Below, piece after piece: positions 3,609-64,000 of a stretch of 64,000 bases of DNA. The stretch comes from Alphaproteobacteria bacterium. Its GTDB lineage: Bacteria > Pseudomonadota > Alphaproteobacteria > Bin95. The stretch's first letter is position 1. Every line of letters starts with the position of its first letter. Position numbers and translations under genes: made by a program. The stretch spans positions 864,001-928,000 of the forward strand of contig CBDBGH010000003.1 in the NCBI GenBank assembly GCA_965205265.1. The letters are read 5' to 3'. Below the pieces are notes generated by a model that did no database searches, was not told where the DNA came from, and was given only the letters and a program-made list of their open reading frames with translations.

Positions 3609-3662
3609 CCGGCGTCATGCGGATGTGACGCGGTTGGATGGAAGGCGGGGAGAGCACGGCCC

Positions 3663-10703: not shown

Positions 10704-11186
10704 TCAGAAAGCGAGCGCCCGGCGCATCAGGTCGAGCGCGGCCTCGGCGAAGCGCCACATATTCGCCTCGCGGTCGGCGTCGCCCGTCTCGAGCGTCTCG
10801 GCGAAGTCGATGGCGCCGGAGACCGCTAGGCAGCTGTGGCCCGGTGCATCGCCGTAGCGGTTGCCGTCCGGGCCGGCGGCCCCCGTCTCCGCGAGGCCCC
10901 AGTCCGTGCCGAAAATGCTGCGGGCCCGACCCGCCAGCAGCTGCGCATAGGGCTCGGAGGAGGAGCGCAGGCCGCGCATGTCGTCCTCGCCGATGCGCGC
11001 CAGCTCGCGCCGCGCCTCCAGCGTGTAGATGACCCCGCCGCCCCGGTAGTAGCGGCTGGCGCCCGGCACGGCCAGCAGCGCCGCCGAGACCAGCCCGCCG
11101 GACGAACTCTCGAACACTGCAATCGTCTGTCCGCGTTCCTTCAGCGCCGCGCCGATATCCGCGGCCATGCTTTCCAGCCTGCTCAT
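10704..11186 (-). CDS. CinA/PncC C-terminal domain protein
   Basis: AVFESSSGGLVSAAL..VPGAS.YY, ETGAAGP. Confidence 0.85.
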   Translation of the reverse strand: MSRLESMAADIGAALKERGQTIAVFESSSGGLVSAALLAVPGASRYYRGGGVIYTLEARRELARIGEDDMRGLRSSSEPYAQLLAGRARSIFGTDWGLAETGAAGPDGNRYGDAPGHSCLAVSGAIDFAETLETGDADREANMWRFAEAALDLMRRALAF

Positions 11187-11189
11187 GGC

Positions 11190-12578
11190 TCAATATCCCT
11201 CCGGCGTGCGGCGATGCCAGTCCGTCGCCTGCTCATAGGCCCAGCCGATGCGGAGCGCGAGCGCCTCATCGCCGTCGCGGGCGTTGACGAGCAGCGAGGT
11301 CGGCATGCCGGCGTTCGTGAAACCGTTGCGCAGCGCAAGGCCGGTCAGGCCGAGATAGTTGCCCATGCGGGTCACGGTCGCGGGCGTCGTCTTCTGGTCC
11401 ACCTCCGCGACGGGGATCGCGGCGAAGCAGGCGGTCGGCGTCAGCAGCGCGTCGATCCCGTCCATCGCGTCGTCGAAGGCCGCCATGATCGCCTCGCGGT
11501 CCAGCAAGGTCGCGACATAGTCCCGGGCCGGCAGCCGCCCGCCAGCCGCCACGCGCGGGCGCACGTCGGGGTCCAGCTGCTGCTCCTCGTTGTCGATGAT
11601 GTCCTTCAGGTGGGTGTAGCTCTCCGCGCCGATGATGTTGGCGACGAGTTCCGCGAAATCCGCCATCGCGCGCGGCATGTCGATGTCCACGACATGCGCG
11701 CCGAGCTCTTCGAACACGGCGAGCGAAGCGTCGTAGGCCGCGAGGACCTCCGCATCGAAGCCCGGCCTCTCGGAGTCCGGCATCCGCGCCAGGCGTAGGC
11801 CGCGCACGCCCCGGCGCAGCTCCGAAGTCGCGTCAGCGGGCGCCAGCCGGCGGGTCTTCGGGTCGCGCGGGTCGGGGCCCTGCATCGCTTCCAGCAGCCA
11901 GGCGCAGTCCTCGACCGCGCGGGCAAGCGGCCCCGGCGTGTCGAGGGTGTGGGAGAGCGGCAGCACGCCGTGGGTGCTGATCCGCCCGACCGAGGTCTTG
12001 AGGCCGGCCGTGCCGCAGAAGGCCGCCGGCAGCCGCACCGAGCCGCCGGTGTCGGTGCCGATGCCGCAGGGGATGAGCCCGGCGCCGACGCCCGCGCCCG
12101 TGCCGCTCGACGAGCCGCCGGGAATGCGGTGGGTGTCGCGGTCCCAGGGGTTCCAGGGCGTGCCGAGCGAGTTGTTCGTGCCCCAGCCGCCATAGGCGAA
12201 CTCGACCGTGTGGGTCTTGCCGACCACGACCATGCCGGCGGCGCGCAGCCGCTCGACAAGGGTGGCGGTGGTCGGCGAGATGCGCTCCTTCCAGATCGCC
12301 GCGCCGCCGGTCGTGACCCGGCCTTCCATGTCGCAGAGGTCCTTGACGCCGATGGGGATGCCGTGCAGCGGGCCGATGCGGTGCCCGGCCCGGATCGCCC
12401 TGTGCGCGGCCTCCGCCGCCTCGCACGCCTCGTCGGCATAGACGGCGGCGAAGGCATGCAGCTTCGGGTCGAGGCTGGCGATCCGGTCGAGGCAGGTCTC
12501 GGTCACTTCCACGGGTGACAGCCGCCCGGCGGCGATTTCCGGGGCAAGCTCGTGGATCGGGGCGAAGGGGTCCGACAT
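11190..12578 (-). CDS. Amidase signature family enzyme
   Basis: GPLHGIPIGVKD, PGGSSSG, GTDTGGSVRLPA. Confidence 0.93.
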   Translation of the reverse strand: MSDPFAPIHELAPEIAAGRLSPVEVTETCLDRIASLDPKLHAFAAVYADEACEAAEAAHRAIRAGHRIGPLHGIPIGVKDLCDMEGRVTTGGAAIWKERISPTTATLVERLRAAGMVVVGKTHTVEFAYGGWGTNNSLGTPWNPWDRDTHRIPGGSSSGTGAGVGAGLIPCGIGTDTGGSVRLPAAFCGTAGLKTSVGRISTHGVLPLSHTLDTPGPLARAVEDCAWLLEAMQGPDPRDPKTRRLAPADATSELRRGVRGLRLARMPDSERPGFDAEVLAAYDASLAVFEELGAHVVDIDMPRAMADFAELVANIIGAESYTHLKDIIDNEEQQLDPDVRPRVAAGGRLPARDYVATLLDREAIMAAFDDAMDGIDALLTPTACFAAIPVAEVDQKTTPATVTRMGNYLGLTGLALRNGFTNAGMPTSLLVNARDGDEALALRIGWAYEQATDWHRRTPEGY

Positions 12579-26692: not shown

Positions 26693-27541
26693 ATGACGCT
26701 GGAGATACGGCCTCTTTGCGACGCGCTGGGCGCAGAGGTCACGGGCCTCGACCTGACGCGGCCGCTGGACGAGGCGGACGCGGCGGCAGTGCGCGAGGCG
26801 TTCCTCGACCGCCACCTGCTCTGCTTCCGCTCCGAGCCGCTTTCGCCCGAGGATTTCCTGCGCGCCGCCCGCCTTTTCGGCGAGCCGCAATTGCAGCTCC
26901 TCCGCCATCGCCGCCACGGCGAGACGCCGGAGGTCTCGATGCTGGAGAGCACCTATAAACGGCCCGAGGACAAGCCGGACGACCTTGCCCTCGTGCGCCT
27001 CTCCGGCTGGCACACGGACGACAGCTATTTCGCCGCGCCCGCCAAGGCGACCATGCTGCAGTCGCTGGCGCTTCCGTCCTCCGGCGGCGAGACCCGCTTC
27101 TGCAACACCCGCCGGGCCTGGGAGGCGCTGGATGAGGACGTGAAGGCGCGGATCGAGGGCGCTGAGGCGGTCCACGGCTACGACACGCCGCGCGCGCCGG
27201 GCCGGGCCGAGACGCGCACGGCCGAGGAGGCCGCCGAGACGCCGGACGTGGTGCATCCGCTCGTCCGCACCCATGAGGACACAGGCAGGAAGGCGATCTA
27301 TTTCAACCCGAACCGCACCGACCGCGTGGTCGGGCTGGAGCGGGCGGAGAGCGACGCGCTGCTCGACGGCCTTTACGCGCATATGACCGCCGACCGCTTC
27401 CGCTACGACCACTCCTGGCGGCTGGGGGATATCCTGCTCTGGGACAATCGTTGCCTGGTGCATTCGGTGAACACGGACTTCCCCGTGGGCGAGGAGCGCC
27501 GGCACCAGCGCATCCTGCTGAAGGGAGGCAAACCGGTATGA
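26693..27541 (+). CDS. TauD/TfdA Fe(II)/2OG dioxygenase
   Basis: WHTD, GGETRF, HPLVRTH, WDNR..VH. Confidence 0.92.
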   Translation: MTLEIRPLCDALGAEVTGLDLTRPLDEADAAAVREAFLDRHLLCFRSEPLSPEDFLRAARLFGEPQLQLLRHRRHGETPEVSMLESTYKRPEDKPDDLALVRLSGWHTDDSYFAAPAKATMLQSLALPSSGGETRFCNTRRAWEALDEDVKARIEGAEAVHGYDTPRAPGRAETRTAEEAAETPDVVHPLVRTHEDTGRKAIYFNPNRTDRVVGLERAESDALLDGLYAHMTADRFRYDHSWRLGDILLWDNRCLVHSVNTDFPVGEERRHQRILLKGGKPV

Positions 27542-28404
27542 GCGTACAATTCGAGCCGTTGTCGCCGGCTGTCGGCGCGGAAGTCAGGGGCGTGGACCCG
27601 CGCCGGCCTCTCGACGCGGGAACCGTGGCGGAGGTGGAGGCGGCGTTCGCGGAATACGGCGTGCTGCTGTTCCGCGACGCGCCGATGGACCCGGGCGAGC
27701 TCATGGCGTTCTCCCGCCATTTCGGCCCCCTCCAGCCGCATGTGCAGCGCGCCTACCACCATCCCGATGCGCCGGATGTTGTGGTGATGACCAACCAGCA
27801 TGCCGACGGCAGTTTCGACGAGACCGGCGCCCGGCGCGGCGCCATCGAGAATGTCCGCAACGGCTGGCATTCGGACCTCGCCTATGACGCGATACCCGCC
27901 AAGGCGACGCTCCTGCATGCGACGAACGTGCCGTCCTCGGGCGGCAATACCTGCTTCGCCAGCACCGCCGCCGCCTATGAGGCGCTGCCGGAGGAGACGC
28001 GGGAACGCGCGCGCGGGCTCGAATGCCTGTTCGTCTATGGCATGGACCAGCGCAACAAGAGCCTCGCCATCGCGGCGCAGAGCCTGGACAAGGAGGAGCG
28101 CGCTGTGCATCCGGTCATCAACGCCCATGCGGCGACCGGACGGGCGGCGATCTATGCCAATCCGATGTCCACCGTCGGCATTGTCGGCATGGAGCAGGAG
28201 GAAGCGGACCGGCTGCTGGACGAGTTGTTCGACATGCTGGACCGGCCGGAATTCCGCTGGGAGCATGAGTGGTCTGTCGGCGACACGCTGATGTGGGACA
28301 ATCGCGGCGGCGTCATGCATTGCGGACGCCTCGACTACCCCCGCAACGAACTCCGCCGCTTCCTGCGCACGACGGTCACCGGCGGCCCCATCCTGCCGGC
28401 CTGA
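27538..28404 (+). CDS. TauD/TfdA Fe(II)/2OG dioxygenase
   Basis: WHSD, GGNT.F, HPVI..H, WDNR...MH; ATGA overlap with the previous gene. Confidence 0.92.
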   Translation: MSVQFEPLSPAVGAEVRGVDPRRPLDAGTVAEVEAAFAEYGVLLFRDAPMDPGELMAFSRHFGPLQPHVQRAYHHPDAPDVVVMTNQHADGSFDETGARRGAIENVRNGWHSDLAYDAIPAKATLLHATNVPSSGGNTCFASTAAAYEALPEETRERARGLECLFVYGMDQRNKSLAIAAQSLDKEERAVHPVINAHAATGRAAIYANPMSTVGIVGMEQEEADRLLDELFDMLDRPEFRWEHEWSVGDTLMWDNRGGVMHCGRLDYPRNELRRFLRTTVTGGPILPA

Positions 28405-30350: not shown

Positions 30351-31583
<1,233 letters not shown>

Positions 31584-38833: not shown

Positions 38834-40016
38834 CAGGCGGCGGTCAGCACGCGCAGGCCCCGGTCGAGGCCGTCGATGGAAAGCGGGAACATGCGGTTGG
38901 CCATGACCTCCTTGACGATCATGGTCGAAGGGGTGTGCTCCCAGCGGGTCTCGGGGCGCGGGTTCAGCCAGATCGCGTTCGGCCACTGGTCCAGCATGCG
39001 TTGCGCCCAGAGCAGGCCGGGCTCCTCGTTCCAGTGCTCCACGGAGCCGCCCTTGTAGGTGATCTCATAGGGGCTCATGAAGGCGTCGCCCACGAAGATC
39101 ACCTTGTAGTCCTTGGGATAGGTGTTGATGACATCCCAGGTCGGCGTGCGCTGCTCGTGGCGCCGGCGGTTGTCCCGCCACATATATTCGTAGGTGAAGT
39201 TGTGGAAGTAGTAGTATTCGAGATGCTTGAACTCGGTGCGCGCGGCCGAGAACAGCTCCTCGCAGACCCTGATATGGTCGTCCATCGAGCCGCCGACATC
39301 GAAGAACATCAGCACCTTGACGCGGTTGCGGCGCTCCGGGCGCATGACGATGTCTAGCAGCCCGCCATTATGCGCAGTGCTGCGGATCGTCTCGTCGAGG
39401 TCGAGCTCGTCGTCCTCGCCCACCCGCGCGAACTCGCGCAGGCGCCGCAAGGCAAGCTGGATGTTGCGGATGCCGATCTGGACGTGGTCGTCGTAGTTCT
39501 TGTATTCGCGCTTGTCCCACACCTTCAGCGCACGGCCCTGCCGGCGGCGGCGCTGGCCGATGGCGACGCCCTCCGGGTTGTAGCCGCCCGTGCCGTAGGG
39601 CGAGGTTCCGGCCGTGCCGATCCAGCGGTTGCCGCCCTGGTGGCGTTCCTTCTGCTCCTCCAGCCGCTTGCGAAGCTCCTCCATGAGCTTCTCCCAGCCG
39701 CCCATGGCCTCGATGGCCGCCTTGTCCTCCTCGCTGAAATACTTTTCCGCCTGCAGCAGCAGCCATTCCTCGGGAATGTCGTCGCCGAACAGCGTCGCCG
39801 TTATGTCCTCGACGCCCTTGAAGAACGTCCCGAAGACGCGGTCGTAGCGGTCGAAATATTTCTCGTCCTTCACCAGCGCGGCGCGGGAGAGATAGTAGAA
39901 ATCGTCGATATTGTACATCACGAGGCGCCTGTCCATCGCCTCGATCAGCATGAGGAATTCGCGGATCGTCGCCGGTATCTTCGCCTTCTTTACGTCGAAA
40001 AAGAAGTTGATGAGCA

Positions 40017-40017
<1 letters not shown>
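38833..40017 (-). CDS. VWA domain protein (MoxR partner)
   Basis: HQGG.RWIGT.GTSP, FFDVGGSMD (MIDAS), IFVGDA.MSPYE. Confidence 0.88.
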
Positions 40018-40871
<854 letters not shown>

Positions 40872-48360: not shown

Positions 48361-48760
48361 GTCATACCCGGACTTGTTCCGGGCATCTCCGTCGGGGCCA
48401 TCGCGGCGGCCGCATGGATGCCCGGAACAAGTCCGGGCATGACGATATGAGGGCATGACGATGAAGGGGGGCGGCGCGCCGGGCGTCGATCGGAGTCCCG
48501 GTTCGACCGGACCCTTGGAAACCCGTTTGAATCCAGGCCATGCGTCCTGTCCGCAAAACCCAAACCGGACAGCAGTGGAACAAGTCCGGGCATGACGATA
48601 TGGGAGGCGGGTATGACGGGAACGGGGGCGGGCCGCCGGGTGTCGATCCGAGTTCCGATCCCGCCGAACCCCTCCAAGCCCGGTTGAATTCAAGCCATGC
48701 GCTCTGTCCCCCAAATCTAAACCGGACAGCAGTGGAACAAGTCCGGGCATGACGATATGG
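48361..48760. repeat. REP-like inverted pair followed by a ~155-bp tandem array
   Basis: GTCATACCCGGACTTGTTCCGGGCATC and its inverted copy; GGAACAAGTCCGGGCATGACGATATG at 48424, 48577, 48734; AAACCGGACAGCAGT precedes copies 2 and 3. Confidence 0.85.
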
Positions 48761-48847
48761 GGCATGGCGGAAAGGAGCTCGAGGCATCGACTGCGGTCCT
48801 GCCCCGACACGCACGGATGCCGCCGACAACCGATTCTCAAACGGTAT

Positions 48848-50617
48848 CTAGGCAATGCGGCGGCCCGCTTCGGCGAACTGGAGCGCATGCAGGCGCGCAT
48901 AGGCGCCGCTCTGCGCCAGAAGCGCGCCGTGAGCACCCGACTCGATCACCCGGCCCTCGTCGATGACATGGATTACATCGGCATTGGCGACGGTGGAGAG
49001 GCGGTGCGCGATGACGACGGTGGTGCGGCCCTGCTTCAGGCGCTCGAGCGCCGCCTGGACCAGCCGTTCGGTCTCGGTGTCGAGCGCGGAGGTCGCTTCG
49101 TCCAGGAGCAGGATCGGCGCGTCCTTCAGCATGGCGCGCGCAACGGCGATGCGCTGGCGCTGGCCGCCCGAGAGCCTGACGCCGAACTCGCCGACCCGCG
49201 TCCGGTAGCCCTCCGGCATGGCCTCGATGAAATCGTGCGCGCCCGCATTGCGCGCGGCGGCCTCGACCTCTTCCTCCGTCGCGTCCGCCCGGCCGCAGGC
49301 GATATTGGCGTGAATGCTGTCGTCGAACAGCGATACCTCCTGGCTTACCAGCGCGATCCTGTCCCTGAGCGAGGCGAGGGTGACGCTTCGCACGTCCTGC
49401 CCGTCTATGGCGACCCGGCCGGTTTCGACATCGTAAAAGCGCGGGATGAGGTTGAGGATCGTGGTCTTGCCGGCCCCGGAAGCCCCGACCAGGGCCGATG
49501 TGCGGCCTGCCGGGAAGGTGAGCGAGAGGCCGGACAGCGCCGCCGGTCCGTCCGAATAGGAGAAGGACACGTCCTCGAAGGCGATCTCGCCCCGCCCGAC
49601 GCGAAGGGGTGCCGCGTCCGGCGCGTCCACGATTTCGGGCTTCCGGTCCAGCAGCTCGAAGCAGCGCTGTGCGCCGACCAGTCCCTGCTGGATGGCAGCG
49701 TTGACGCTGACGAGATGCTTGACCGGCCGGTAGGCGATCAGGAAGGCCGTCAGGAACGCAACGATGGTGCCCGGCGTGATATTGCCGGCGGCGACTTGCC
49801 CGCCGCCGTAGAAGATGACGGCCGCGATGGCGACGGCGCCCAGGAACTCCATGACCGGGCGGGAGACCGCCTGCACGCGCACTGTCTTGATCGTCAGGCG
49901 GCGGATGCGGTCGATGGCGGCGTCGGCTTCCCTGCGTTCGCGTTCCTCCAGCCGGTAGGCCTTGATATGGCGGATGCCGGTAAGCGCTTGTTCGAGCGTG
50001 GCGGTGAACTCGCCCCAACTTGTCTGCGCGGAGCTCGTGATCCGGCGGATGCGCCGCCCGATGCGCAGGACAAGCATCAGCGTCGTCGGGAACACGAACA
50101 GCACGATCAGGGTGAGCAGCCAGTCCTGGTGGAACAGCACGCCCAGCACGAAGACGATGGTGAGGCTGTCCCTGCCCAGTGTGAGCAGCGTCGTGGACAG
50201 GGCCCCGCGCATCAGGTTCACGTCATTGGTGAAGCGCGAGATGAGCGCGCCGGTGCGGCTGTTGTCGAAAAACACCAGATCCGCATGGACCAGATGGCCG
50301 AACATCGCGGACTGGAAGGAGGCGACCACGCCCTGGCCGACCCTGGCGAGGATGACGGCCGAAAAATAGGCCGAGAAGCCCTGTACAAGGCCCAGCGCGA
50401 AGATCGTGAGCGAAACGACAACGATCAGCGCTTCGTTGCCCGCAACCAGAACCTCGTCCACCAGTTCCTGCACCACGCGGATGTAGCCGGCCTGCGCGGC
50501 GGCGCTCAGCGCCATCGCCAGCGCGGCCAGGCGGAGCGCCGGCAGGTTGGCGCGGATATGGCTTCGCCAGAGGCGGCCGATCAATGCGCGAACGGGAAGA
50601 TCCGGGGGGGAGGCCAT
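48848..50617 (-). CDS. msbA: MsbA-like lipid A exporter (ABC TMD+NBD)
   Basis: SRFTND, GASGAGKTT, LSGGQRQR, LDEATSALD; upstream of kdtA/lpxK. Confidence 0.88.
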   Translation of the reverse strand: MASPPDLPVRALIGRLWRSHIRANLPALRLAALAMALSAAAQAGYIRVVQELVDEVLVAGNEALIVVVSLTIFALGLVQGFSAYFSAVILARVGQGVVASFQSAMFGHLVHADLVFFDNSRTGALISRFTNDVNLMRGALSTTLLTLGRDSLTIVFVLGVLFHQDWLLTLIVLFVFPTTLMLVLRIGRRIRRITSSAQTSWGEFTATLEQALTGIRHIKAYRLEERERREADAAIDRIRRLTIKTVRVQAVSRPVMEFLGAVAIAAVIFYGGGQVAAGNITPGTIVAFLTAFLIAYRPVKHLVSVNAAIQQGLVGAQRCFELLDRKPEIVDAPDAAPLRVGRGEIAFEDVSFSYSDGPAALSGLSLTFPAGRTSALVGASGAGKTTILNLIPRFYDVETGRVAIDGQDVRSVTLASLRDRIALVSQEVSLFDDSIHANIACGRADATEEEVEAAARNAGAHDFIEAMPEGYRTRVGEFGVRLSGGQRQRIAVARAMLKDAPILLLDEATSALDTETERLVQAALERLKQGRTTVVIAHRLSTVANADVIHVIDEGRVIESGAHGALLAQSGAYARLHALQFAEAGRRIA

Positions 50618-50770
50618 GAGGCCCGCTTCATACCACGGGCGGGCGTCGGGCGGGAGCGCCGATGCGCGCCCGGACGCGACGGTTGCCTGCCTCGCGGAAG
50701 CGGGCGTAAAGTCGCCGAGGCTAAAGCAGGGTCCGGCAGAGCCGGGCCGATATCGGGGAGGGTGCAAACC

Positions 50771-51934
50771 ATGAGACGTTCGCTTCTTGCAGCGGCGGCA
50801 GTGCTGGCCGCAGGCGCCGTTCAGGCCGACGAGATCAGGATCGGGGTGCTCTACCCGATCGCCGGGACCGGAGCCGTTTACGGCGAGCCGGCGATGCACG
50901 GCCACAATATGGCCGTGGACGAACTCAATGCCGCAGGCGGCATCCTCGGCAAGAAGATCGTGAGCTTCGCCCGCGACACCAAGCTGAAGCCGGCCGCTGC
51001 TTCCGCTGCTGCCAAGGAGCTGATTACCAAGGACGGCGTGAATGTGCTGGTCGGCGGGCTCTCTTCGGCCGTCGGCCTTGCGATCTCGGAGGTCGCGCGC
51101 CAGGAGGGCGTCGTCTATGTCGCGACGATCCCGAAGACGATCAAGCTCACCACCGAGAAGCGCCACGACCATGTCTTCCGCACCGCCTCGCACACCGACT
51201 TCGAGGGCGATGCGATGGGCCAGATCGTCGCAAAGCTCGGACTGAAGAAGATCTGCGACATCCAGCTCGATTATGCCTATGGCCACGACCTCGCCGCCGG
51301 CATCGAGAAGGGCCTGAAGCGCCATGCGCCGGACGCCGAGAAGGTGCTCGACCTGCGCGTCAAGCTCGGCGCGACCGACTACAACGCCTTCATCTCGCAG
51401 ATCATGGGCGCGGGCTGCGACGGCGTAACGAGCGGCCTCTGGGGCTCGCACTTCGTCAATTTCGCCCAGCAGGGCAGTCCCTTCGGCCTCTTCAACCAGA
51501 TCAAATACATATCGGGCGGCGAGATCGCGAGCCATGAGATCGCCGGCAAGATGAAGGGCGACTATCCGGACAATGTGTGGTCCAACACCTACGAGCTCTG
51601 GTACCACCACCACGATCCGAGCCATGTCGCGTTTCAGGAGGCGCTCGCCGAGCGCTCCGGCACCAAGGAAACGGCGATGTGGCCGGTGCTTGCCTATATC
51701 GGCGTGAAGTTCATCGCGGCCGCCGCCGAGAAGGCCGGCTCGATGGAAGCGGACGCGCTCGCCGGCGCGCTGAAGGGCATGACCATCCAGACGCCGGTCG
51801 GCCCGCGCACCATCGACCCCGAGACCCATCAAGCCGATACCGGCCAGTTCTGGGGCCCGATGGTCAAGAAGGAAGGCGTGGACTACCGCGTGATGGACCC
51901 CGTGACCTTCATTCCGGCGGTCATCGAAGAGTAG
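50771..51934 (+). CDS. Branched-chain amino acid-type ABC substrate-binding protein
   Basis: Signal peptide, NAAGGILG, GGLSSAV, HVFR. Confidence 0.9.
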   Translation: MRRSLLAAAAVLAAGAVQADEIRIGVLYPIAGTGAVYGEPAMHGHNMAVDELNAAGGILGKKIVSFARDTKLKPAAASAAAKELITKDGVNVLVGGLSSAVGLAISEVARQEGVVYVATIPKTIKLTTEKRHDHVFRTASHTDFEGDAMGQIVAKLGLKKICDIQLDYAYGHDLAAGIEKGLKRHAPDAEKVLDLRVKLGATDYNAFISQIMGAGCDGVTSGLWGSHFVNFAQQGSPFGLFNQIKYISGGEIASHEIAGKMKGDYPDNVWSNTYELWYHHHDPSHVAFQEALAERSGTKETAMWPVLAYIGVKFIAAAAEKAGSMEADALAGALKGMTIQTPVGPRTIDPETHQADTGQFWGPMVKKEGVDYRVMDPVTFIPAVIEE

Positions 51935-52011: not shown

Positions 52012-52956
52012 GTGGACTCCCTGATCCAGTTCGCGCAGCAGGACCTGGGTAATCCGGGGCTGGCGGCTCTGCTGTCCAACCCCTCCTTTGCCTTTATCCA
52101 GCTCATGAATTCCTTCTCGCAGGCGATGAACCTGTTCATCATCGCCGCGGGCCTGTCGCTGATCTTCGGCGTCCTGCGCGTCATCAACTTTGCGCATGGC
52201 GCCTTCTACATGTTCGGCGCCTATATCGTTTATTCCGTGGCCCAGGAGTGGACCGGCAATTTCTGGCTGGGCGTTGCGGCTGCGGGCCTCGGACTTGCGG
52301 TCATGGCGGTCGTCATCGAGCGCGGGCTCTTCCAGTATATCTACGACAAGGAGCACCTGATGCAGCTGCTCCTGACCTTCGCCGTCGTGCTGATCCTCTC
52401 CGATGTCGCCAAGATAATCTGGGGGACGGACCAGTACAGCGTCTCCTATCCGCAGAGCATGAAGGGCGCAGTCGATCTCGGCGTCACCTTCTATCCGACC
52501 TACCGCCTGTTCCTGATCGTGGTCGGACCCGCCATCGCCATCGGGCTCTGGCTGTTCACCGAACGCACGCGCTTCGGGCGCCTGACGCGCGCGGCGACGC
52601 AGGACCGCGAAATGCTCTCCGCCCTCGGCGTCAATGTGCCGATCATCTACACCGGCGTCTTCATCCTGGGCTCGGTGCTGGCCGGCATCGGCGGCGGGCT
52701 CGCCGCGCCCTTCAATTCTCCGACGCCCGGCATGGACGCGACCATCATCGTGGACTGCTTCGTCATCGTCATCGTCGGCGGCCTCGGCTCGATCTGGGGC
52801 AGCTTCATCGGCGCGATCATCTACGGGCTCGTCTTCAACTACGGCTCGGTGATCGTGCCCAACTGGCAGGACGTGTTTCCGTTCCTGATCCTGCTGGCGG
52901 TGCTGCTCATCCGGCCGTGGGGCCTGTTCGGAAAGCCCGAGGGAGGCAACGCCTGA
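52012..52956 (+). CDS. LivH-type ABC permease
   Basis: GLSLIFG...INFAHG, GGLGS, RPWGLFG. Confidence 0.92.
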   Translation: MDSLIQFAQQDLGNPGLAALLSNPSFAFIQLMNSFSQAMNLFIIAAGLSLIFGVLRVINFAHGAFYMFGAYIVYSVAQEWTGNFWLGVAAAGLGLAVMAVVIERGLFQYIYDKEHLMQLLLTFAVVLILSDVAKIIWGTDQYSVSYPQSMKGAVDLGVTFYPTYRLFLIVVGPAIAIGLWLFTERTRFGRLTRAATQDREMLSALGVNVPIIYTGVFILGSVLAGIGGGLAAPFNSPTPGMDATIIVDCFVIVIVGGLGSIWGSFIGAIIYGLVFNYGSVIVPNWQDVFPFLILLAVLLIRPWGLFGKPEGGNA

Positions 52957-52957
52957 G

Positions 52958-53899
52958 ATGACCGGCCGCATGACCCGCCCGGTGCTGATCGCCTGCCTCA
53001 CGGTGCTCGTGCTGCTGGCGCTGGTGCCCCTGCTGGAATCGAACTATCTGATCGACCTCTTCAACGAGATCATGATCTACGCGCTGTTCGCGCTCAGCCT
53101 CAATGTCATCATCGGCTATTCCGGCAATGTCTCCTTCGGCCATGCCGCCTATTTCGCCATCGGCGGCTACACCATGGCGATCCTGCTCACCACCTATGAG
53201 TGGCCGCTGCTGCCGGCGTTCGTCGCCGCCGTCGCCTTTTCCTTCGCCTGCTCGGCCGTGGTCGCCTATTTCTGCACGCGGCTGACCGACATCTACTTCG
53301 CCATGCTGACGCTCGCCTTCTCAATGCTGGTATGGGGCGTCGCCTTCAAGTGGCGGTCGATGACCGGCGGCGACGACGGCTTCGTCGGCGTGGACGTGCC
53401 GGCCTTCATCGCCGAGCGCGTGCCGTTCTACTATTTCTCGCTGGTCGTGATCGCCATGGCCGTGGCGGTGCTCTGGGTCATCTGCCACTCCGCCTTCGGG
53501 CGCGCGCTGCTGGCGGTGCGCGAGAATCCGGTCCGCGCGGGCTTCGTCGGCATCAACACGCGGCTCATGCGCTGGTGGGCCTTCGTCGTGGCGGGCACCT
53601 TCGCCGGCATTGCGGGCGCGCTGTTCGCCATGGTGCATCGGGGCATGTACACGGAGTCTGCCTTCTGGCCCGAGAGCGCGACCGTGCTCATCATGACGCT
53701 GCTCGGCGGCATGTACTCCTTCTTCGGCCCGGCCATCGGGGCGGCGAGCCTCTTCCTGCTCGAACGGCTGACCAACGAATACACCGAATACTGGCCCCTG
53801 GTGCTGGGGACGATCCTGCTGGCGATCCTGATGTTCCTGCCGGAAGGGCTGGCGGGGCTGGCGCAGGCGGTCCGCCGCCAGATCCTCCGGGGGCGCTGA
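52958..53899 (+). CDS. LivM-type ABC permease
   Basis: SFGHAAYF, YFAMLTLAF, TGGDDG, VRENP. Confidence 0.92.
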   Translation: MTGRMTRPVLIACLTVLVLLALVPLLESNYLIDLFNEIMIYALFALSLNVIIGYSGNVSFGHAAYFAIGGYTMAILLTTYEWPLLPAFVAAVAFSFACSAVVAYFCTRLTDIYFAMLTLAFSMLVWGVAFKWRSMTGGDDGFVGVDVPAFIAERVPFYYFSLVVIAMAVAVLWVICHSAFGRALLAVRENPVRAGFVGINTRLMRWWAFVVAGTFAGIAGALFAMVHRGMYTESAFWPESATVLIMTLLGGMYSFFGPAIGAASLFLLERLTNEYTEYWPLVLGTILLAILMFLPEGLAGLAQAVRRQILRGR

Positions 53900-53903
53900 G
53901 GCC

Positions 53904-54659
53904 ATGCTGAAGATCGAGGGCCTCTTCAAACAGTTCGGCGGGTTCGTCGCCATCGACGACGTGTCCTTCGAGCTTCTGGAGGGCGAGAAGCACGCCATTA
54001 TCGGACCCAACGGCGCGGGCAAGACCACCTTCTTCAACCTGGTCACGGGCCATTTGCTGCCGGACCGGGGCAGCGTCGCCTTCCAGGGCGAGGACATCAC
54101 CGGCCGGCCGCCGCACCGCATCGTCAAGCTCGGCCTCGCGCGCTCCTTCCAGCGCATCAACATCTATCCGCGCATGTCGGTGTTCGAGAATGTCCAGGTC
54201 GCGCTGATCGCCCGCGAGCGCCAGGAGTTCCGCTTCTTCCGGCTCGCCGCCAGCCTTTGCGGGCCGGAGACGAACGAGCTGCTGGAACTGGTCGGGCTGG
54301 ACGAGGAGGCCGATGAGCTCGCCGGCGAACTCGCCTACGGCAAGCAGAAGCAGCTGGAGCTCGCCATTGCGCTTGCCGAAAACCCCCGCGTGCTGCTGCT
54401 CGACGAGCCGACCGCCGGCATGTCGCCGAGCGAGACCGAGGAGGCGATCCGGCTGATCCGCGAGATCGCCGACGCCAGGGGGCTCACGCTCCTGTTCACC
54501 GAGCACGACATGACGGTCGTGTTCGGCATCGCCGACCGGATCACCGTGCTCCACCACGGCGAGATCATCGCCTCGGGTGCGCCGGAGGCCGTGCGCAGCG
54601 ACCCGGTGGTGCGCCAGGTCTATCTCGGCGAGGAGGAGGGGGTGAATGGCGCAGCTTGA
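53904..54659 (+). CDS. LivG-type ABC ATPase
   Basis: GPNGAGKTT, LLDEPTAG, EHDM, YLG. Confidence 0.92.
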   Translation: MLKIEGLFKQFGGFVAIDDVSFELLEGEKHAIIGPNGAGKTTFFNLVTGHLLPDRGSVAFQGEDITGRPPHRIVKLGLARSFQRINIYPRMSVFENVQVALIARERQEFRFFRLAASLCGPETNELLELVGLDEEADELAGELAYGKQKQLELAIALAENPRVLLLDEPTAGMSPSETEEAIRLIREIADARGLTLLFTEHDMTVVFGIADRITVLHHGEIIASGAPEAVRSDPVVRQVYLGEEEGVNGAA

Positions 54660-55353
54660 AGCCAGGAACCTGCACACCTCTTACGGCCTGTCGCGGGTGC
54701 TGTTCGGTGTCTCCTTCGAGGTCGAGCAGGGTTCCTGCATCGCGCTGATCGGGCGCAACGGCGTCGGCAAGACCACCACCATGCGCTCGCTGATCGGGCT
54801 CACGCCGCCCTCCGAGGGCGAGGTGGTCTGGGAAGGGCGGCAGATCGCCGGGCTCGCCCCGCATGCCGTCGCCAAGCTCGGCATCGGCTTCGTGCCGGAG
54901 GACCGGCGCATCTTCCCGGAGCTCACGGTCTGGGAGAACCTGGACATCGCCCGGCGGCCGGCGGAGCCGGGGCGGCAGGCCTGGGGCGAGGACGAGGTGT
55001 TCGACCTCTTCCCCGACCTGAAAGACATCCAGTCGCGGGCCGGCGGCGTGCTCTCCGGCGGCCAGCAGCAGATGCTGACCATCGCGCGCTCGCTGATGGG
55101 CAATCCGCGCCTGCTGCTGCTCGACGAGCCTTCGGAGGGCCTTGCCCCGCGCGTCGTCGAAACGCTGCGCGAGCGCGTGCGCACGCTCAAGCAAAGCGGT
55201 CTTTCCATCGTGCTTGCGGAACAGAATCTCGGCTTCGTGCTGGCGCTTTCCGACATGTGCCATATCATGGAGAAAGGCGAGATCGTCTATTCCGGCACGC
55301 CGGACCATTTGCGGGAGAACCGCGATGTGCTCGACCGGTATCTGACGCTGTGA
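54646..55353 (+). CDS. LivF-type ABC ATPase
   Basis: GRNGVGKTT, LSGGQQQM, DEPSEGLAP. Confidence 0.92.
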   Translation: MAQLEARNLHTSYGLSRVLFGVSFEVEQGSCIALIGRNGVGKTTTMRSLIGLTPPSEGEVVWEGRQIAGLAPHAVAKLGIGFVPEDRRIFPELTVWENLDIARRPAEPGRQAWGEDEVFDLFPDLKDIQSRAGGVLSGGQQQMLTIARSLMGNPRLLLLDEPSEGLAPRVVETLRERVRTLKQSGLSIVLAEQNLGFVLALSDMCHIMEKGEIVYSGTPDHLRENRDVLDRYLTL

Positions 55354-58021: not shown

Positions 58022-59079
58022 CTAGAGCGGAATCCGATCATGTTGCGGAGTATCCTGCGGCGTTGAAGTAGTTTTTGCATTCTTGCGGTGAGAAGGTCTG
58101 GGAGATTTGTCCGATGGTGTTCCAGAGGCCGTCGACAGTTCTCTCGGCAGCTTTTCGTAGCCTTGCCTTGAGCTTTGCGAAGGCGAGTTCGATGGGATTG
58201 AAGTCAGGGCTGTAGGGCGGCAGGAAGAGGAGTTGCGCGCCGGCGTCCTCGATCATCTTGCAAACCCTGGGTCCCTTGTGGCTTGAGAGGTTGTCCATGA
58301 CGACGATATCGCCGGGCCTCAGTTCGGGGACGAGGACCACTTTGACGTAGGCCTCGAAGGCATCGCGGTCGATGGCGCCGGAGAGCACGAAGGGGGCAAT
58401 CATGCCGCGCGGCGTGAGCCCGGCGACGAAGGTGGTTGTGTTCCAGTGTCCGTGAGGGACGGCCATGCGCAGACGTTTGCCGCGCGGGGCCCAGCCGTGG
58501 GTGCGGGCCATGTTGGTCTTGGCCCCTGTCTCATCGATGAACACCAGCCGGTCGGGGTCGAGGCCGGGCTGGCTGTCGCGCCAGGTGCGCCGTCGGCTCA
58601 GCACGTCCGGGCGATCCTGCTCCGCCGCCTGGCCGGTCTTTTTTTGCGCGTGATGGCGTGGCGCACGAGGAAGCGCTGTATCGCCCCGTAGCTGAAGGCG
58701 AGGCCCCGGTCCCCGAGAGCCGCGCGCAACTCCTCGATGGTCATGTCCCGCTTCTCCTCAAGAAGACCCAGGATCACATCGCGCTGCGCTTCGATCCGCC
58801 CCGAGCGACGGTCCCCGCCAAGCGCCTTCGGGCGCGCGTCTCCCTGTTCGCGCGCCAGCGCACGCCAGCGGCTCACGCTCGCCGCACTCACCCCAAAACG
58901 CGCACCAGCCGCTCTATGGCTCATGCCCGCACATACCGCCGACAGAACCCGATTGCGAAGATCAAGGGAAAGCGCTTTCGACATCTCAGCCGGCCTCCTC
59001 ATCCCGGCCGACATCTTGAATCACAAATCCTCCGCCCCGTGAATCCCCCTCGATTCAATCAGGTCAGATCATGCTCTAG
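58022..59079 (-). mobile_element. IS630-family element 1 (split transposase 58984->58038, -1 frameshift at A7G near 58639-58645)
   Basis: OrfA HTH (MSKALSLDLR), Orf[18 protein letters not shown]; CTAGAGC terminal IRs. Confidence 0.93.
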
Positions 59080-60259
59080 TATCCTGATCGAGAAGTTTAT
59101 TAGAATAAGATTATCGGTTTTGATGGAGGGCTGACCGGTGGGGAGAGCAGCGGTCGCGATTACTTTGTCGGCAGCAGAACGACGAGAGTTGGAGGGTTTG
59201 GCGCGGCGTCGGAAGACGGCGCAGGGACTGGCGCGTCGGGCTCGGATTGTCCTGGCTGCTGCTGAGGGTCTGGAGAACAAGGCGATAGTTGCGCGCTTGG
59301 GAGCGGATGCGAATACGGTCGGCAAATGGCGGCGGCGTTTTGCCGAGCGCGGGCTTGACGGGCTCTATGACGAGCCGCGCCCGGGCGCTCCGCGCAAGAT
59401 CGGTGACGAGGAGGTTGCGGAGGTCATTGCCCGCACCCTGGAAGAAACACCCCCCGACGGCACGCATTGGAGCCTGCGCTCGATGGCGCGCGCTGCAGGC
59501 TATGCGCCCTCGACGATCCATCGCATCTGGCAGGCTTTCGGCCTGCAGCCGCATCGCTCGGAGACGTTCAAGCTGTCGTCGGACCCACTGTTTGTGGAGA
59601 AGGTGCGGGACATTGTCGGCCTCTATCTCGACCCGCCCGAGCGCGCGCTGGTGCTCTGCGTCGATGAGAAGAGCCAGATCCAAGCTCTGGACCGCTCCCG
59701 CCCGCTGCTTCCCATGCGGCCGGGTCAGGTCGAGCGGCGTACTCATGACTACACGCGCCATGGCACCACCACGCTGTTCGCGGCGCTGGACATCGCCACC
59801 GGCCGGGTCATCGGCCAGTGCTTGCCGCGCCACCGCAGCCGGGAGTTCCTCAAGTTCCTGCGCACGCTCGAAGCCCAGGTCCCCGGCGAACTCGACGTCC
59901 ATCTGGTGATGGACAACTACGCAACCCACAAGACGCCCGCCGTCCGGCGTTGGCTGGCCCGGCATCCCCGCTGGCATGTCCACTTCACGCCCACCGGCGC
60001 CTCCTGGCTCAACCAGGTCGAGCGCTTCTTCGCACTCTTGACCGAGAAACAGCTCAGGCGCGGGGTTCATCGCTCGCCCCAGGAACTCGAGCAGGCCATC
60101 CGGAACTACATCGACACCGTCAACGCCGACCCGCGACCCTTCCGCTGGACCAAATCCGCCGACGACATCCTTGCCACCATCAAGCGCTTCTGTCTGCGGA
60201 CGCTGGAAACTGCCGAACGCCAGATGAAAATCATCAAAACTTCAGAATCAGGACACTAG
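59076..60259 (+). mobile_element. IS630-family element 2 (single-ORF transposase)
   Basis: IRs TAGTATCCTGATCGAGAAGTT / AACTTCAGAATCAGGACACTA. Confidence 0.93.
59138..60259 (+). CDS. IS630 transposase
   Basis: CVDEK, MDNY, SWLNQVE DDE triad; the stop codon is supplied by the terminal CTAG. Confidence 0.95.
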
Positions 60260-61313
60260 AGCAGATTCGTTTCATTTGGGTTCATATCCGCATGCAGTGA
60301 AGAAGCTTCGGGCGTCCTGTGGAGTGACAGCATCGATGGCGTCGCGGATCGCATCCCAGAGCGTATGGACGGAGCGTGCTGCGGCCTTTTTCAGGAGAGC
60401 CTTGATTTTGGAGAAGGCCATCTCGATGGGGTTGAAGTCGGGGCTGTAGGGCGGCAGGAACAGGATGCCGGCGCCTGTGGCCTCGATAGCTTCTCGGATG
60501 GCGATGGGCTTGTGGGCCGGCAGATTGTCGAGGATGACGGTGTCGCCTGGCCTCAGGGTCGGGGCCAGGACCTGTTCGACATAGGCAAGGAAGGCTGCCC
60601 CGGTCATCGCCCCATCGATGGTCATGGGGGCGAGGATGCCGTCGAGCGTGAGGCCGGCGACCAAAGTGGTGGTCTTCCAGTGACCATGGGGGACGGGAGC
60701 GCGGCAACGCTCGCCCCTGGGAGCCCGGCCATACATGCGGGCCATCTTGGTCGAGGTCCCGCTTTCGTCGATGAAGATCAGGCGCTCGGGGTCGAGCCCG
60801 GGCTGGTCTTCGAACCAGGCCTGACGCCGGCGTGCGACGTCCGGTCGGTCCTGCTCGGCAGCGTGGGCCGTCTTTTTTTGCGCGTGATGCCGCGACGCTT
60901 GAAGAACCCATGCACCACGCTGGGCGGCGGCCGGTAGCCGACCGCCTCCTCAAGCCTGGCCGCGATCTCCTGGAGGGTCAGGTCGGGCTCCACCTCAACC
61001 CACCCCATGATCAGATCGCCGTGACCCTCAATGCGCCCTGGACGGCTACCGCCGCGTGGCTTCGGCGAGAGGTCGCCTGTCAGGCGCGATTGGCTCACCC
61101 AGCGGATCGCAGACGACACCCCGACGCCAAAACGCGCCGCAGCCTGCCGACGCGACATCCCGGACTCAACCGCTGCAACCACGCGCCGACGAAGATCAAC
61201 AGAAAGAGACTGCGCCATGCGAGCTGGCCTCCTTCACCAGCCCCCATCGTGAATCACATAATCCGCCAATTGGGAATCCCTCAACGATTCAATCGCCCGC
61301 GAATTCGCTCTAG
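60256..61313 (-). mobile_element. IS630-family element 3 (split transposase 61218->60272, -1 frameshift at A7G 60873-60879)
   Basis: OrfA MAQSLSVDLR; -1 frame [14 protein letters not shown]...FIDES...LDN...[10 protein letters not shown]; IRs CTAGAGCAGATTCG / CGAATTCGCTCTAG. Confidence 0.93.
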
Positions 61314-61820
61314 ATTGAAGGGGCGGAGGCGTCATCCGGAGCCGCCTGCCCTTTCGCTCTGGCGCCGGCGCGGAAAAAGCCCTGAGAAGCGGACGGGGCA
61401 AGTGCGTCCTGCGTCCTGCGTCCGGCTCGCGCGCGCGGGCGCACCCGGGCAATCAGGCGCGCGATTCGCGCCGCCGCGAAACGCGCGCCCACGAGCGCGG
61501 GCGCAGGCGCGCAGGATACGCGCGAATAAGGGTCCGCTGCTCGGGGAGACCGGCGGCGGAAAGAACGGAACGAAGAAGGATCGGAAGGAAGAACCCATGC
61601 CGAAGACGCAGAGGCGGGAAACCGGGATGGAATATCCGGAGCGCCTTCCGGGAGCGATGCTTCCATGCCGGAAGCGACGGCAGGATATGCGCCGCTCGCA
61701 TGCGGACCATGACATTCCATGACACCTCGTCGGGGGGCTGCGCATCCGTTGCAGGCGAGAGTGCGTTTCCCCGCGCAGGGGAAGGCGCTTAGACTGGTGA
61801 AAGACAGGAGGGTTCGATCG

Positions 61821-62903
61821 ATGGGATACCCCGATGCGCCGGCGCCGATCCGCGCCGACATTCTGGCGGCCCATGCCCGCGCCTGGGCCTGGATCGCCGC
61901 TCCGGGCAATTGGCTGACGGGAGCGGAGCGCGTCGCCATCGCCGCCGAGACGCGCCATGCGCTGGACTGCCGGCTATGCGCCGCGCGCAAGCAGGCGCTC
62001 TCGCCCGAGACGGTCGCCGGCGAGCATGACGGGCCGGGCGTTCTCGAGCCGCCGATGGTGGAAATCGTCCACCGCATCGTCACCGACCCCGCACGCCTGA
62101 CGCGCCGCTGGTTCGAGGCGCGGCGGGCCGAGGGCGTCGAGGTCACGCGCTATGTGGAGACGGTGGGCGTGACGGCGGTGACGGTCTCGCTCGACACCTT
62201 CGCCCGCTCTATGGGTCTGCCGCCGCGCCGCCTGCCGGAGCCGGAACCGGGAGAGCCGTCGGGCTACCGCCCGGCCTCGGCGCGCATGGAGGAGGCGTGG
62301 GTCCCGCTGATCGTGCCGGGCGAGGAAACAGGGCCCGAGGCCGACCTCTATTCCGGCACGAGAGGCGCCTACATCCTAATGGCGCTGACCCTTGTGCCGC
62401 AGGCGAAGCGGGCCTTCTTCGACCTTGTGGAGACGCAATATCTGCCAAGCCGCTGGATGCAGGCGTTCGATGTCGAGCACCGCGCCATCAGCCATGCGCA
62501 GATCGAGTTCCTGGCAGCGAGGATTTCCGCGCTCAACCAGTGCGTTTACTGAACCACCAGCCATGCGCTGCTGCTCCGTGAGAGCGGCCGGACAACAGGC
62601 GACAGTTACGATCTGGACGCAATCGTGAGCGGCGGCGGCGGCGGGGTCGCCGCCGGCGAGGAATTGGCGGCCTTCGCCGAGGCGGTCGCCGGGGAGGGCG
62701 ACATGGCCGCGGCGATTTCGGCGCTGCGCCGCGCGGTCGGCGATGCCGGCTGGGTGGACGCGGCCGGCGTGGCCGCGACCTTCAACGCCATCGACCGCGT
62801 GGCGGACGCGACCGGCATACCGCTCGAACCGAAGAAAGCGGCAGTGTCGGCCGATTTCCGCGGCGAACTCGATATCGACGCCTGGGCCGAGGCGCGCGGA
62901 TAA
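61821..62903 (+). CDS. AhpD/CMD-like alkylhydroperoxidase-related selenoprotein (Sec at TGA 62550-62552)
   Basis: QIEFLAARISALNQCVY-TGA-TTSH reads as CxxU; the frame stays open into ORF 62625-62903; hairpin after the UGA. Confidence 0.8.
62570..62588 (+). promoter_or_regulatory. Candidate bacterial SECIS hairpin
   Basis: GCTGCTC-CGTGA-GAGCGGC starting 18 nt after the UGA, G in the apical loop. Confidence 0.6.
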
Positions 62904-62914
62904 GGAGGAGTCCC

Positions 62915-64000
62915 ATGATCGAACGCAAGCACGAGGACGAATTCGTCGTCGTCTCCAACGGGATGCTGGGATACGGCTTCCGCGAGGAGTCGCTCCGGGA
63001 TGCGGTGGAGGCCGGCGTGGACCTGATCGCCTGCGACGCGGGCTCCAGCGATCCGGGGCCCTACTATCTCGGCACCGGCAAGCCGTTCGTGGGCGATGCG
63101 ATGATCCTGCGCGACCTGCGCCTGCTGGTGAAGGCGGGCGCGGATGCGGGCGTGCCGCTGATCATCGGGTCGGCCGGCGGGGCGGGCGGCGACGGGCAGG
63201 TGGACCATCTGCTCGCGCTGCTCGGCCGGGTGATGGAGGAGCTCGGGCTCGACCGTAAGGTTGCCGTGCTGCGCTCCGAACTCGACCGGGGAACGGTGCG
63301 CGAGGCGGTGGAAGAAGGCCGGGTGCGCCTGTTCGAGACCGGGGCGGCGCTGACCGTCGAGGATGTCGATGCGGCCGCGCATATCGTGGCGCAGATCGGC
63401 CCGGAATCCTACTTCCGCGCGCTCGCCGAGGCGCCTGACATCCTCGTAGCGGGCCGCGCCTGGGACGTGTCCAACATCGCCGCGCTGCCGTTGATGCAGG
63501 GCCGGGACCGCGGCCTCGCGCTGCATATGGGCAAGATCCTCGAATGCGGCAGCCTGGCCGCGCGTCCGACCGGCGGCGGGGACCTCATTCTGGGGCGTCT
63601 GCGCGACGACCACTTCATCGTCGAGCCGCCGCATCCGGACAAGGCCTGCACCGAGGCTTCCGTCTCGGCGCACACCTTCTACGAGAAGTCGGACCCGGTG
63701 ATGCTGGCGGGGCCGGGCGGGTCGGTCGATCTGCGGCGGACCCGGTTCGAGCAGATCGACCCGCGCCGGGTACGCGTCTCCGGCAGCGCCTTCCGCGAGG
63801 CCGAGCGCTACACGGTCAAGCTGGAGGGCGCGCGGCTTGCCGGGCACCGGGCGCTGACCGTCGGCGGCGCGCGCGATCCGGCCTTCATCCGCTCCATCGA
63901 CGCGATCCAGGAGGCCGTCCGCGAGAAGATCCGCGAGACCCAGGCGGGGTTCATCGACCCCTCGCAATACAGCATCACCTTCCACCGCTACGGCCTGGAC
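62915..64000 (+). CDS. AtuA/DUF1446-family protein (truncated by the window end)
   Basis: AAGGAGG RBS; GMLGYGF, DAGSSDPGPYYLG, AGRAWD, HMGKILECG, AHTFYEK; absent from the ORF track because no stop lies in the window. Confidence 0.85.
   Translation, partial: MIERKHEDEFVVVSNGMLGYGFREESLRDAVEAGVDLIACDAGSSDPGPYYLGTGKPFVGDAMILRDLRLLVKAGADAGVPLIIGSAGGAGGDGQVDHLLALLGRVMEELGLDRKVAVLRSELDRGTVREAVEEGRVRLFETGAALTVEDVDAAAHIVAQIGPESYFRALAEAPDILVAGRAWDVSNIAALPLMQGRDRGLALHMGKILECGSLAARPTGGGDLILGRLRDDHFIVEPPHPDKACTEASVSAHTFYEKSDPVMLAGPGGSVDLRRTRFEQIDPRRVRVSGSAFREAERYTVKLEGARLAGHRALTVGGARDPAFIRSIDAIQEAVREKIRETQAGFIDPSQYSITFHRYGLD

Follow-up and report, generated by a model that had tools for sequence, protein, structure and literature searches.

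Does the reading frame that opens at position 61821 of this 64,000-nucleotide stretch of alphaproteobacterial DNA (referred to here as the window) end at its in-frame UGA, or is that codon decoded as selenocysteine (Sec, U), yielding a single longer protein? On the forward strand, positions 61821..62903 constitute one frame from an ATG to a TAA at 62901-62903, which comprises 360 codons plus the stop and translates into 360 amino acids when TGA is read as U. Only one in-frame TGA occurs in this frame, at 62550-62552 (+), corresponding to residue U244. Under translation table 11, the upstream ORF (61719-62552) terminates in ...AARISALNQCVY followed by the TGA, and the ORF list contains a second ORF, 62625-62903, which shares the frame of the 61821 coding sequence; translation therefore bears out the preliminary description of this DNA, in which the frame was said to continue past the TGA into ORF 62625-62903 to give 360 residues. 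A Shine-Dalgarno-like AGGAGGG, read from the sequence, lies at 61806..61812 (+), 8 nt upstream of ATG 61821, and this ATG was preferred to the more upstream start of the ORF (61719) because homologues begin at an equivalent Met (MGYPDA...).

Family assignment provides the first part of the answer. With U written as C, the read-through protein matched NCBIfam model NF041238 at 457.7 bits (cutoff 175), with protein residues 10-356 aligned to positions 1-356 of the 357 in the profile. NF041238 corresponds to AhpD_rel_CFYUT, "alkylhydroperoxidase-related (seleno)protein", and its C-x-Y-U-T motif is present in the window as C241-V-Y-U244-T. Models of related families were matched below their cutoffs, including TIGR01926 (peroxidase-related; 36.4 vs 81.8, E = 4.2e-9) and TIGR00777 (AhpD; 24.5 bits vs 191.95), while the match to Pfam CMD was marginal and fell just under the gathering score (21 vs 23). 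The protein is thus AhpD-like in fold and motif, and is not an AhpD orthologue. We consider it very probable that the region represents one gene, encoding a 360-residue selenoprotein of NF041238. The family first appeared under another name: in their selenoproteome of the Sargasso Sea, Zhang, Fomenko and Gladyshev (2005; PMC1088965) described AhpD-like CXXU selenoproteins and also a family of four sequences, 'hypothetical protein 1', in which the CXXU is conserved and a SECIS is predicted, and a 2026 review equates the latter with NF041238 (PMC13188914). Furthermore, 'AhpD-like 1' ranked fourth among selenoprotein families in the GOS survey, with 299 sequences (PMC2398784), and BSepDB includes an AhpD-like family page (PMC13326102). 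Publication of this family, with its Sec codon and SECIS, dates back to 2005, and it is curated, including by an NCBI model; none of this is new, and the selenoprotein cannot be called 'hidden', as it had been in the preliminary description.

Conservation of the UGA itself was assessed in a scan of 185,579 species genomes, from which 334 related stretches were confirmed and the best 80 analysed. The patterns used for scanning stopped upstream of codon 244, resulting in no selection for TGA. Among the 80 most similar of the 334 stretches, a choice that favours the Sec-type clade, TGA was found at the aligned codon in 80/80 loci (67 + 13); it was also found in three extra copies (L036, L038 and L043) and in the window, that is, in 84/84 copies. 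In each of the 83 plus-strand copies, window included, a further 114-140 codons without a stop follow this internal TGA, and these copies end in a terminal TGA (36), TAA (25) or TAG (22). Within the window TGA is also the usual stop, ending 27 of 35 family-annotated genes. An open and conserved frame would fit any sense reading of UGA equally well, such that the codon might be recoded as Trp, Cys or Gly, through a near-cognate tRNA or an altered genetic code. However, since TGA ends 27/35 genes of the window and 36/83 family genes, global reassignment of this codon is excluded; moreover, the position is that of a redox Cys of a CxxC motif in 27 homologues, the classic Sec/Cys signature, and tRNA-Sec, selA and selB lie beside the gene in several relatives (both described below). 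Recoding as an amino acid other than Sec is accordingly highly improbable.

The Sec/Cys pairing emerged from two sets of database homologues. Among the 120 best-listed homologues, 119 terminate precisely at ...N-x-C-x-Y, whose last residue directly precedes the UGA, and correspond to stumps of 233-277 residues lacking the catalytic Sec and His; where a source gives a name for these stumps, it is mostly 'hypothetical protein'. The one exception (P0039, 367 aa) reads through with CFYC. When representatives of 50%-identity clusters were searched exhaustively, 1,656 proteins were obtained at E ≤ 0.001, of which the best 150 were classified: 98 end exactly before U244, 27 read through with CxxC, 15 end earlier (fragments), and 10 are other or unalignable. 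Each Cys-type homologue forms one continuous chain, with lengths of 331-429 aa. With TGA in 84/84 copies and Cys in 27/150 representatives, the Cys/TGA pairing across homologues that the preliminary description had proposed as a check is indeed observed, and the feature at 62550..62552 (+) is best annotated as selenocysteine 244. UGA is thus kept throughout the close and mid-distance relatives covered, and Cys takes its place in distant ones. The residue following C241 varies among relatives, being V, L, F, I or T. As a separate observation, stumps from Sec-type genes outnumber Cys forms among the best 150 of the 1,656 representatives (98 vs 27).

The 116 codons that are reached only through recoding of the UGA (62553..62900, +) include His248 together with the remainder of the AhpD-like domain, and form a conserved open frame. 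When these codons of the window were compared with those of relatives, differences at codon positions 1/2/3 numbered 3/3/15 for L001, 2/1/15 for L005, 4/7/33 for L004, 3/2/34 for L006 and 11/12/46 for L044. Substitutions in this part of the gene thus fall mainly at third positions, and we conclude that the tail is translated; at the level of nucleotide comparison, the pattern demonstrates protein-level selection on the downstream frame. An alternative would be two adjacent genes, one for a 243-residue protein that stops at the TGA and another for a separate 92-residue protein beginning with GTG 62625; both table-11 ORF finding and most public annotation divide the region in this way. Yet residues 245-268, located between the two ORFs, are conserved, with the near-invariant H248 among them; solved AhpD-like domains align unbroken across the junction (residues 189-344), and the Cys homologues span both parts as one chain. 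A pair of genes is therefore scarcely credible, and the single read-through gene is retained in what follows. Pseudogene and two-gene readings of 61821-62903 were both tried as candidates and rejected on the conservation data.

Downstream of the UGA, a bSECIS-like hairpin was identified at 62570..62588 (+), comprising a stem (GCUGCUC, 62570-62576, with GAGCGGC, 62582-62588) and a five-base loop (CGUGA, 62577-62581). Its position agrees with the preliminary description, which had it begin at the 18th nucleotide after the UGA, 17 nt lying between. The first base of the loop is located 24 nt after the UGA, and the second loop position is a G (CGUGN). We take this G and the 24-nt distance to fit the general picture of bacterial SECIS elements, the numeric limits being those of the bSECISearch work. 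From 80 aligned sequences (79 distinct), RNAalifold recovered a 6-bp stem and a 5-nt loop (62571-62576 / 62582-62587), and 91.3% of stem cells were paired, vs 34-59% when the partner column was slid by 1-3 columns. Covariation is thin: three of the seven pairs never vary, two vary on one side only, and changes on both sides affect the other two pairs, in 5 of 553 cells. The hairpin of the window is identical to that of its relatives in the aligned sequences.

Folding energy was not informative in this setting, with hairpin stability no better than that of shuffled sequences (z = -0.24 over 80 nt and -0.49 over 51 nt; 78/200 and 57/200 shuffles, respectively, folded at least as well), and was set aside for comparative tests because it was not significant at 68% G+C. 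Searches of Rfam across the whole window at gathering thresholds gave no match to the hairpin, and around the UGA gave chance-level matches to unrelated sRNAs only. Comparative tests of codon usage were more revealing. Across 82 distinct sequences, codons within the hairpin have a synonymous entropy of 0-0.5 bits, vs about 0.5-2.0 at most other codons. For example, the Leu at codon +8 is encoded by CTC in 82/82 sequences, whereas other Leu codons in the same genes mix 2-5 synonymous codons; the Arg at +9 is CGT in 73, CGG in 9 and CGC in none (n = 82), as opposed to CGC in 58/82 for the Arg at -23; the Ala at +10, where present, is always GCG (44/44); and for the Ser at +11, 80 sequences use AGC and the other 2 use AGT, with no TCN (n = 82), as opposed to TCN in 80/80 for the Ser at -8. 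Such synonymous-site constraint across an almost unvarying hairpin implies selection on the RNA itself, and we infer that the hairpin is a bacterial SECIS. In this capacity it would recruit SelB-GTP-Sec-tRNA(Sec) to the ribosome paused at the UGA, enabling insertion of Sec244.

If the UGA is decoded in this manner, the organism should possess the Sec machinery, and one objection to decoding arises from its absence in the window. The 64-kb window contains no tRNA genes, and no selA, selB or selD was found among the 56 ORFs scanned in it. Genes for Sec synthesis and insertion are normally unlinked to most selenoprotein genes, however, and absence from 64 kb consequently says little. Linkage was nevertheless detected in some relatives: among the best 80 of the 334 loci, ARAGORN predicted tRNA-SeC (anticodon TCA) within 10 kb of the gene in six, in five of which (L030, L038, L069, L078 and L079) it is adjoined by selA and/or selB. 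In L030, tRNA-SeC (2313-2408) ends 124 nt before the gene start and is accompanied by selA (a 3' fragment) and selB. The corresponding distance is 15 nt in both L038 (4379-4474, with selA) and L060 (853-948), in the latter of which no sel genes were identified. In L069 (8958-9053, with selA) and L079 (8884-8979, with selA and selB) the tRNA gene lies about 0.9-1 kb upstream, and in L078 (1631-1726, with the C-terminal part of selB) 8.3 kb upstream. Two further ORFs of L038, 1522-3450 and 3450-3977, had no family match; the first of these differs in frame from the ORF chosen by the codon-position G+C filter.

For the nine loci closest to the window (L001-L006, L011, L013 and L044), no tRNA-Sec was found within 10 kb. 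Together with the lack of Sec genes in the window and an IS630 transposase cluster that abuts the gene upstream, this might indicate a relic or silenced gene whose UGA is no longer decoded, such that translation stops at 62552 and leaves an inactive 243-residue fragment without Sec or His. Against this, the 116 downstream codons are intact, differences from close relatives (as with L001 and L005) are mostly at third positions, the hairpin is the same as in relatives, and the Sec genes, being usually unlinked, need not lie nearby. We regard silencing as very unlikely. Taken together, the match to NF041238, the Sec/Cys pairing, the conserved TGA with its constrained hairpin, and the selA-selB-tRNA-Sec linkage in some relatives support the core reading, and uphold the earlier proposal of a Sec-containing enzyme produced by UGA read-through; that UGA 62550 is decoded as Sec in this organism can be stated with high confidence. 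A scan of the window for a second selenoprotein, requiring an in-frame TGA flanked by coding signal on either side, returned six sites, and a redox motif accompanies 62550 alone. Of the other five, at least two look like neighbouring genes that share a frame by chance.

With the frame established, we examined the fold and active site of the encoded protein. An AlphaFold2 model built from a 42-sequence alignment is all-helical, with a pLDDT of 95.1 and a pTM of 0.94. In a profile search the C-terminal half matched AhpD of D. radiodurans (PDB 6k40; E = 1.6e-16, residues 189-344), with the Sec column falling on the second Cys of its CVYC; further PDB profile matches of this half were 3c1l, 2pfx, 2oyo and 2prr. 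Solved AhpD-like proteins align over the downstream stretch to about residue 344, and in Foldseek comparisons of the C-terminal half with AhpD-like structures target-normalised TM scores reached 0.74-0.75 (0.74 for 6k40). On these sequence and model comparisons, the C-terminal half is clearly recognisable as an AhpD-like domain. Its catalytic signature, E229-x11-C241-V-Y243-U244-x3-H248 (62505..62564, +), has the spacing of the AhpD proton relay. In the A3 alignment (42 sequences, Cys types included), N239, C241 and position 244 show no variation, and conservation at E229, Y243 and H248 is 90% or higher. U244 corresponds to Cys133 of M. tuberculosis AhpD, which we take to be the attacking nucleophile of that enzyme. 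The published relay residues are Glu118/Cys130/His132/Cys133/His137 in M. tuberculosis AhpD and Glu36/Cys48/Tyr50/Cys51/His55 in PA0269 (PMC3141380). The AhpD/CMD motif named in the preliminary description is likewise present, with the correction that the His lies four residues after the Sec (CxxUxxxH) rather than three.

Assignment of the N-terminal half is less direct. It contains the second CxxC (CRLC) previously noted near the N-terminus, C50-R-L-C53 (61968..61979, +), at the start of a predicted helix (51-58). C50 and C53 are invariant in alignments A1 (30 sequences) and A4 (28 sequences); in A3 (42 sequences) C53 is invariant and C50 at least 90% conserved. No PDB sequence profile matched this half significantly (best E = 0.44). 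Modelled alone it reached a pLDDT of 90.7, and its top 10 fold matches were all AhpD-like, at weak scores (E = 0.04-0.26, TM 0.45-0.51, rmsd > 8 Å). Alignment of the two halves with hhalign placed C50xxC53 in register with C241xxU244, again weakly (P = 0.003, probability 10.6%). Tandem AhpD-like domains, each with a CxxC-type motif, are therefore a likely architecture, if not a proven one. The term 'multi-domain' used previously is a fair one, given a C-terminal half that is clearly AhpD-like and an N-terminal half that matches the same structures weakly.

Genomic context offers a further view of possible function. Immediately downstream, an ORF at 62915..64000 (+), cut by the end of the window, matches Pfam PF07287 (AtuA) at 64.8 bits (gathering 22.8) over profile positions 241-349 of 437. 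It starts 11 nt past the TAA of the selenoprotein gene, has its own GGAGGA in the spacer, and no terminator-like sites were found in 61200-64000. Owing to the 11-nt spacer and this lack of terminator-like sites, co-transcription of the selenoprotein gene with the AtuA-family gene is plausible on sequence grounds. Among 81 loci (the best 80 of 334 and the window), an AtuA-like gene lies downstream in 10, namely the window, L001-L006, L011, L013 and L044, all encoding proteins that share 79% or more identity with that of the window; in L004 the AtuA-like gene is in turn followed by a DUF4387 gene. Given that it is confined to the close clade of the window, we view the AtuA pairing as lineage-specific and not a family trait. 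The earlier observation of an AtuA-like gene 11 bp downstream therefore stands as to spacing and PF07287 match, and the gene pairing does not extend beyond the close clade. In this lineage the gene is probably transcribed together with the AtuA-family gene, to which relatives add a DUF4387 gene.

No family-wide conserved neighbour was found across the 81 loci. In other clades, lytic transglycosylase genes occur nearby in 11 loci, and a Prx-like gene occurs nearby in 7/80 (best 80 of 334); the Prx-like gene of L079 has an in-frame TGA of its own (...GHW-U-PFC...). Adjacency of Prx-like and AhpD-like genes was noted by the GOS survey (PMC2398784). The Prx-like/NF041238 pairing recalls that of AhpD and AhpC. 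Upstream of the selenoprotein gene in the window, three IS630-family transposase ORFs or fragments (58041-61218) directly precede it, and the native promoter context may have been disturbed as a result.

From these features a mechanism can be proposed. The protein would consist of two all-helical AhpD-like halves, the C-terminal of which would carry the full relay (E229 / C241 / Y243 / U244 / H248) with Sec as the second position of the CxxC-type motif. Its most likely chemistry would be thiol/selenol-disulfide exchange, and its 'peroxidase-like' character is a putative one, predicted from homology. Sec244 may attack an oxidised partner, such as a peroxiredoxin-type protein, or a hydroperoxide; C241 would then resolve the adduct, forming a selenenylsulfide with U244 that could be re-reduced, possibly via the conserved N-terminal C50xxC53. 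A more specific version is a self-contained two-module redox relay, in which the C50xxC53 of a diverged N-terminal AhpD-like domain would recycle the C241xxU244 selenenylsulfide of the catalytic C-terminal domain. In the clade of the window the protein would then have joined an AtuA/DUF4387 operon, perhaps acting against lipid- or terpenoid-derived hydroperoxides, and not the Prx-like partner that adjoins it in other lineages. We consider this version unlikely as it stands. In the portions of the literature covered by our search, no biochemical function was found reported for any member of NF041238, and a relay of this kind, if true, would represent new biochemistry for the selenoprotein family because no family function has been published. 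The two-half architecture that it invokes is reminiscent of the AhpD-like halves of sestrins.

The main value of the present analysis lies in annotation correction, as standard gene calling stops short at the UGA. Decoded as Sec, this codon gives back a full-length redox enzyme and marks the organism as a probable user of selenocysteine. NF041238, found here mostly in its Sec form, also constitutes a reasonable target for biochemistry.

Comparison with known systems places the gene and its product in context. The hairpin resembles bacterial SECIS elements in being an intra-CDS structure that closely follows the UGA and whose small apical loop has a G (GU) near its 5' side; it differs in that its stem is short (6-7 bp) and that no curated RNA family covers it. 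Among eukaryotic proteins, Sestrin2 would share the arrangement of two AhpD-like domains and gave a weak whole-chain match (5dj4_D; TMq 0.46, probability 0.85), but the two chains superpose poorly (rmsd 14 Å, 12% identity), and there is no sign of common descent beyond domain type. Other parallels are AhpD of M. tuberculosis, PA0269 of P. aeruginosa and 6k40, which have the same all-helical AhpD/CMD fold and the relay spacing E-x11-C-x-(H/Y)-C-x3-H (PMC3141380); in contrast to these, the window protein has Sec in place of the second Cys and a chain twice as long. The marine 'AhpD-like' selenoproteins (COG2128 / TIGR01926; PMC2398784) share with it a CxxU in an AhpD-type site and a homologous C-terminal domain, and some adjoin Prx-like selenoproteins, as do 7/80 loci here. 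Whereas those proteins are single-domain, at about 180-190 aa, the window protein adds an N-terminal domain of ~180 residues with a CxxC. Finally, the window protein agrees with NF041238 / 'hypothetical protein 1' in its CxxU, its length of about 360 aa, the hairpin after the UGA and the existence of Cys homologues. Nothing essential differs, the window having C-V-Y-U-T for the name-giving C-F-Y-U-T, and what sets its clade apart within the family is the AtuA/DUF4387 neighbourhood.

Immediately upstream of the window's AhpD-related selenoprotein gene lie three IS630-family transposase genes or fragments (window 58041-61218), at 58041-58604 (-), 59138-60256 (+) and, divided between two ORFs, 60275-60745 and 60781-61218 (-); the split copy has either a frameshift or a break. 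A transposase of the IS110 family was also identified at 30354-31385 (-). Elsewhere in the window, two tandem paralogues of cyclopropane-fatty-acid synthase genes (2406-4862; 2406-3605 and 3663-4862) each score ~546-551 bits against NF053839, slightly below the cutoff of 600. At 26693-28401, an adjacent pair of TauD/taurine-dioxygenase-like genes was found; because these ORFs overlap by ~90 nt as called by the ORF filter, the true start of the second gene is probably further downstream. At 38836-40871 (-), an AAA-type ATPase with a sub-threshold MadB family match (123 bits vs 475) is located next to a 394-aa ORF weakly matching the SAV_2336 N-terminal domain. G+C at codon positions 1 and 2 of this stretch is below that of neighbouring genes, and the stretch is possibly an acquired module. 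Finally, the family match of a 1061-codon ORF (48749-51931, +), to branched-chain amino acid/urea ABC substrate-binding protein, is limited to residues 677-1031; the long N-terminal part may be an artefact of calling the ORF too far upstream in DNA of high G+C. UrtB/C/D/E-like ABC transporter genes follow at 52012-55350.

Among related genome loci, the AhpD-related gene was identified in two adjacent copies, with a TGA and a hairpin in every copy, in L038 (4490-6722) and L043 (8580-11071), where they are arranged in tandem, and in L036 (8215-9609), where they occupy opposite strands. Unlinked paralogue pairs were also found in several MAGs (L037/L044, L006/L068, L046/L073 and L022/L051).

In four related loci, a selA-selB-tRNA-SeC cluster (with selA and/or selB, depending on the locus) lies directly upstream of the AhpD-related gene: L030 (384-2408), L038 (18-4474), L079 (5508-8979) and L069 (5417-9053). 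Just downstream in L079 are two further genes, apparently truncated selenoproteins, one Prx-like (AhpC/TSA; ...GHW-U-PFC...; 11122-11749) and one deiodinase-like (...SYT-U-PPF...; 11836-12546), and L069 is similar. Together with selA-selB-selC, these genes make up a small "selenoprotein island" in L079, and similarly in L069. Of the 80 best loci, 7 have the Prx-like gene in the vicinity of the AhpD-related gene. Between the sel genes and tRNA-SeC of L038, an ORF (3714-4331, -) with sub-cutoff matches to NF053654 "YciW-related (seleno)protein" and TIGR01926 is another AhpD-superfamily gene within the sel island.

In L030, the selB ORF (384-2357) overlaps at its 3' end with tRNA-SeC (2313-2408). 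This overlap agrees with the nesting of selC in selB, an arrangement in Alphaproteobacteria which a 2026 review (PMC13188914) credits to Mukai 2021.
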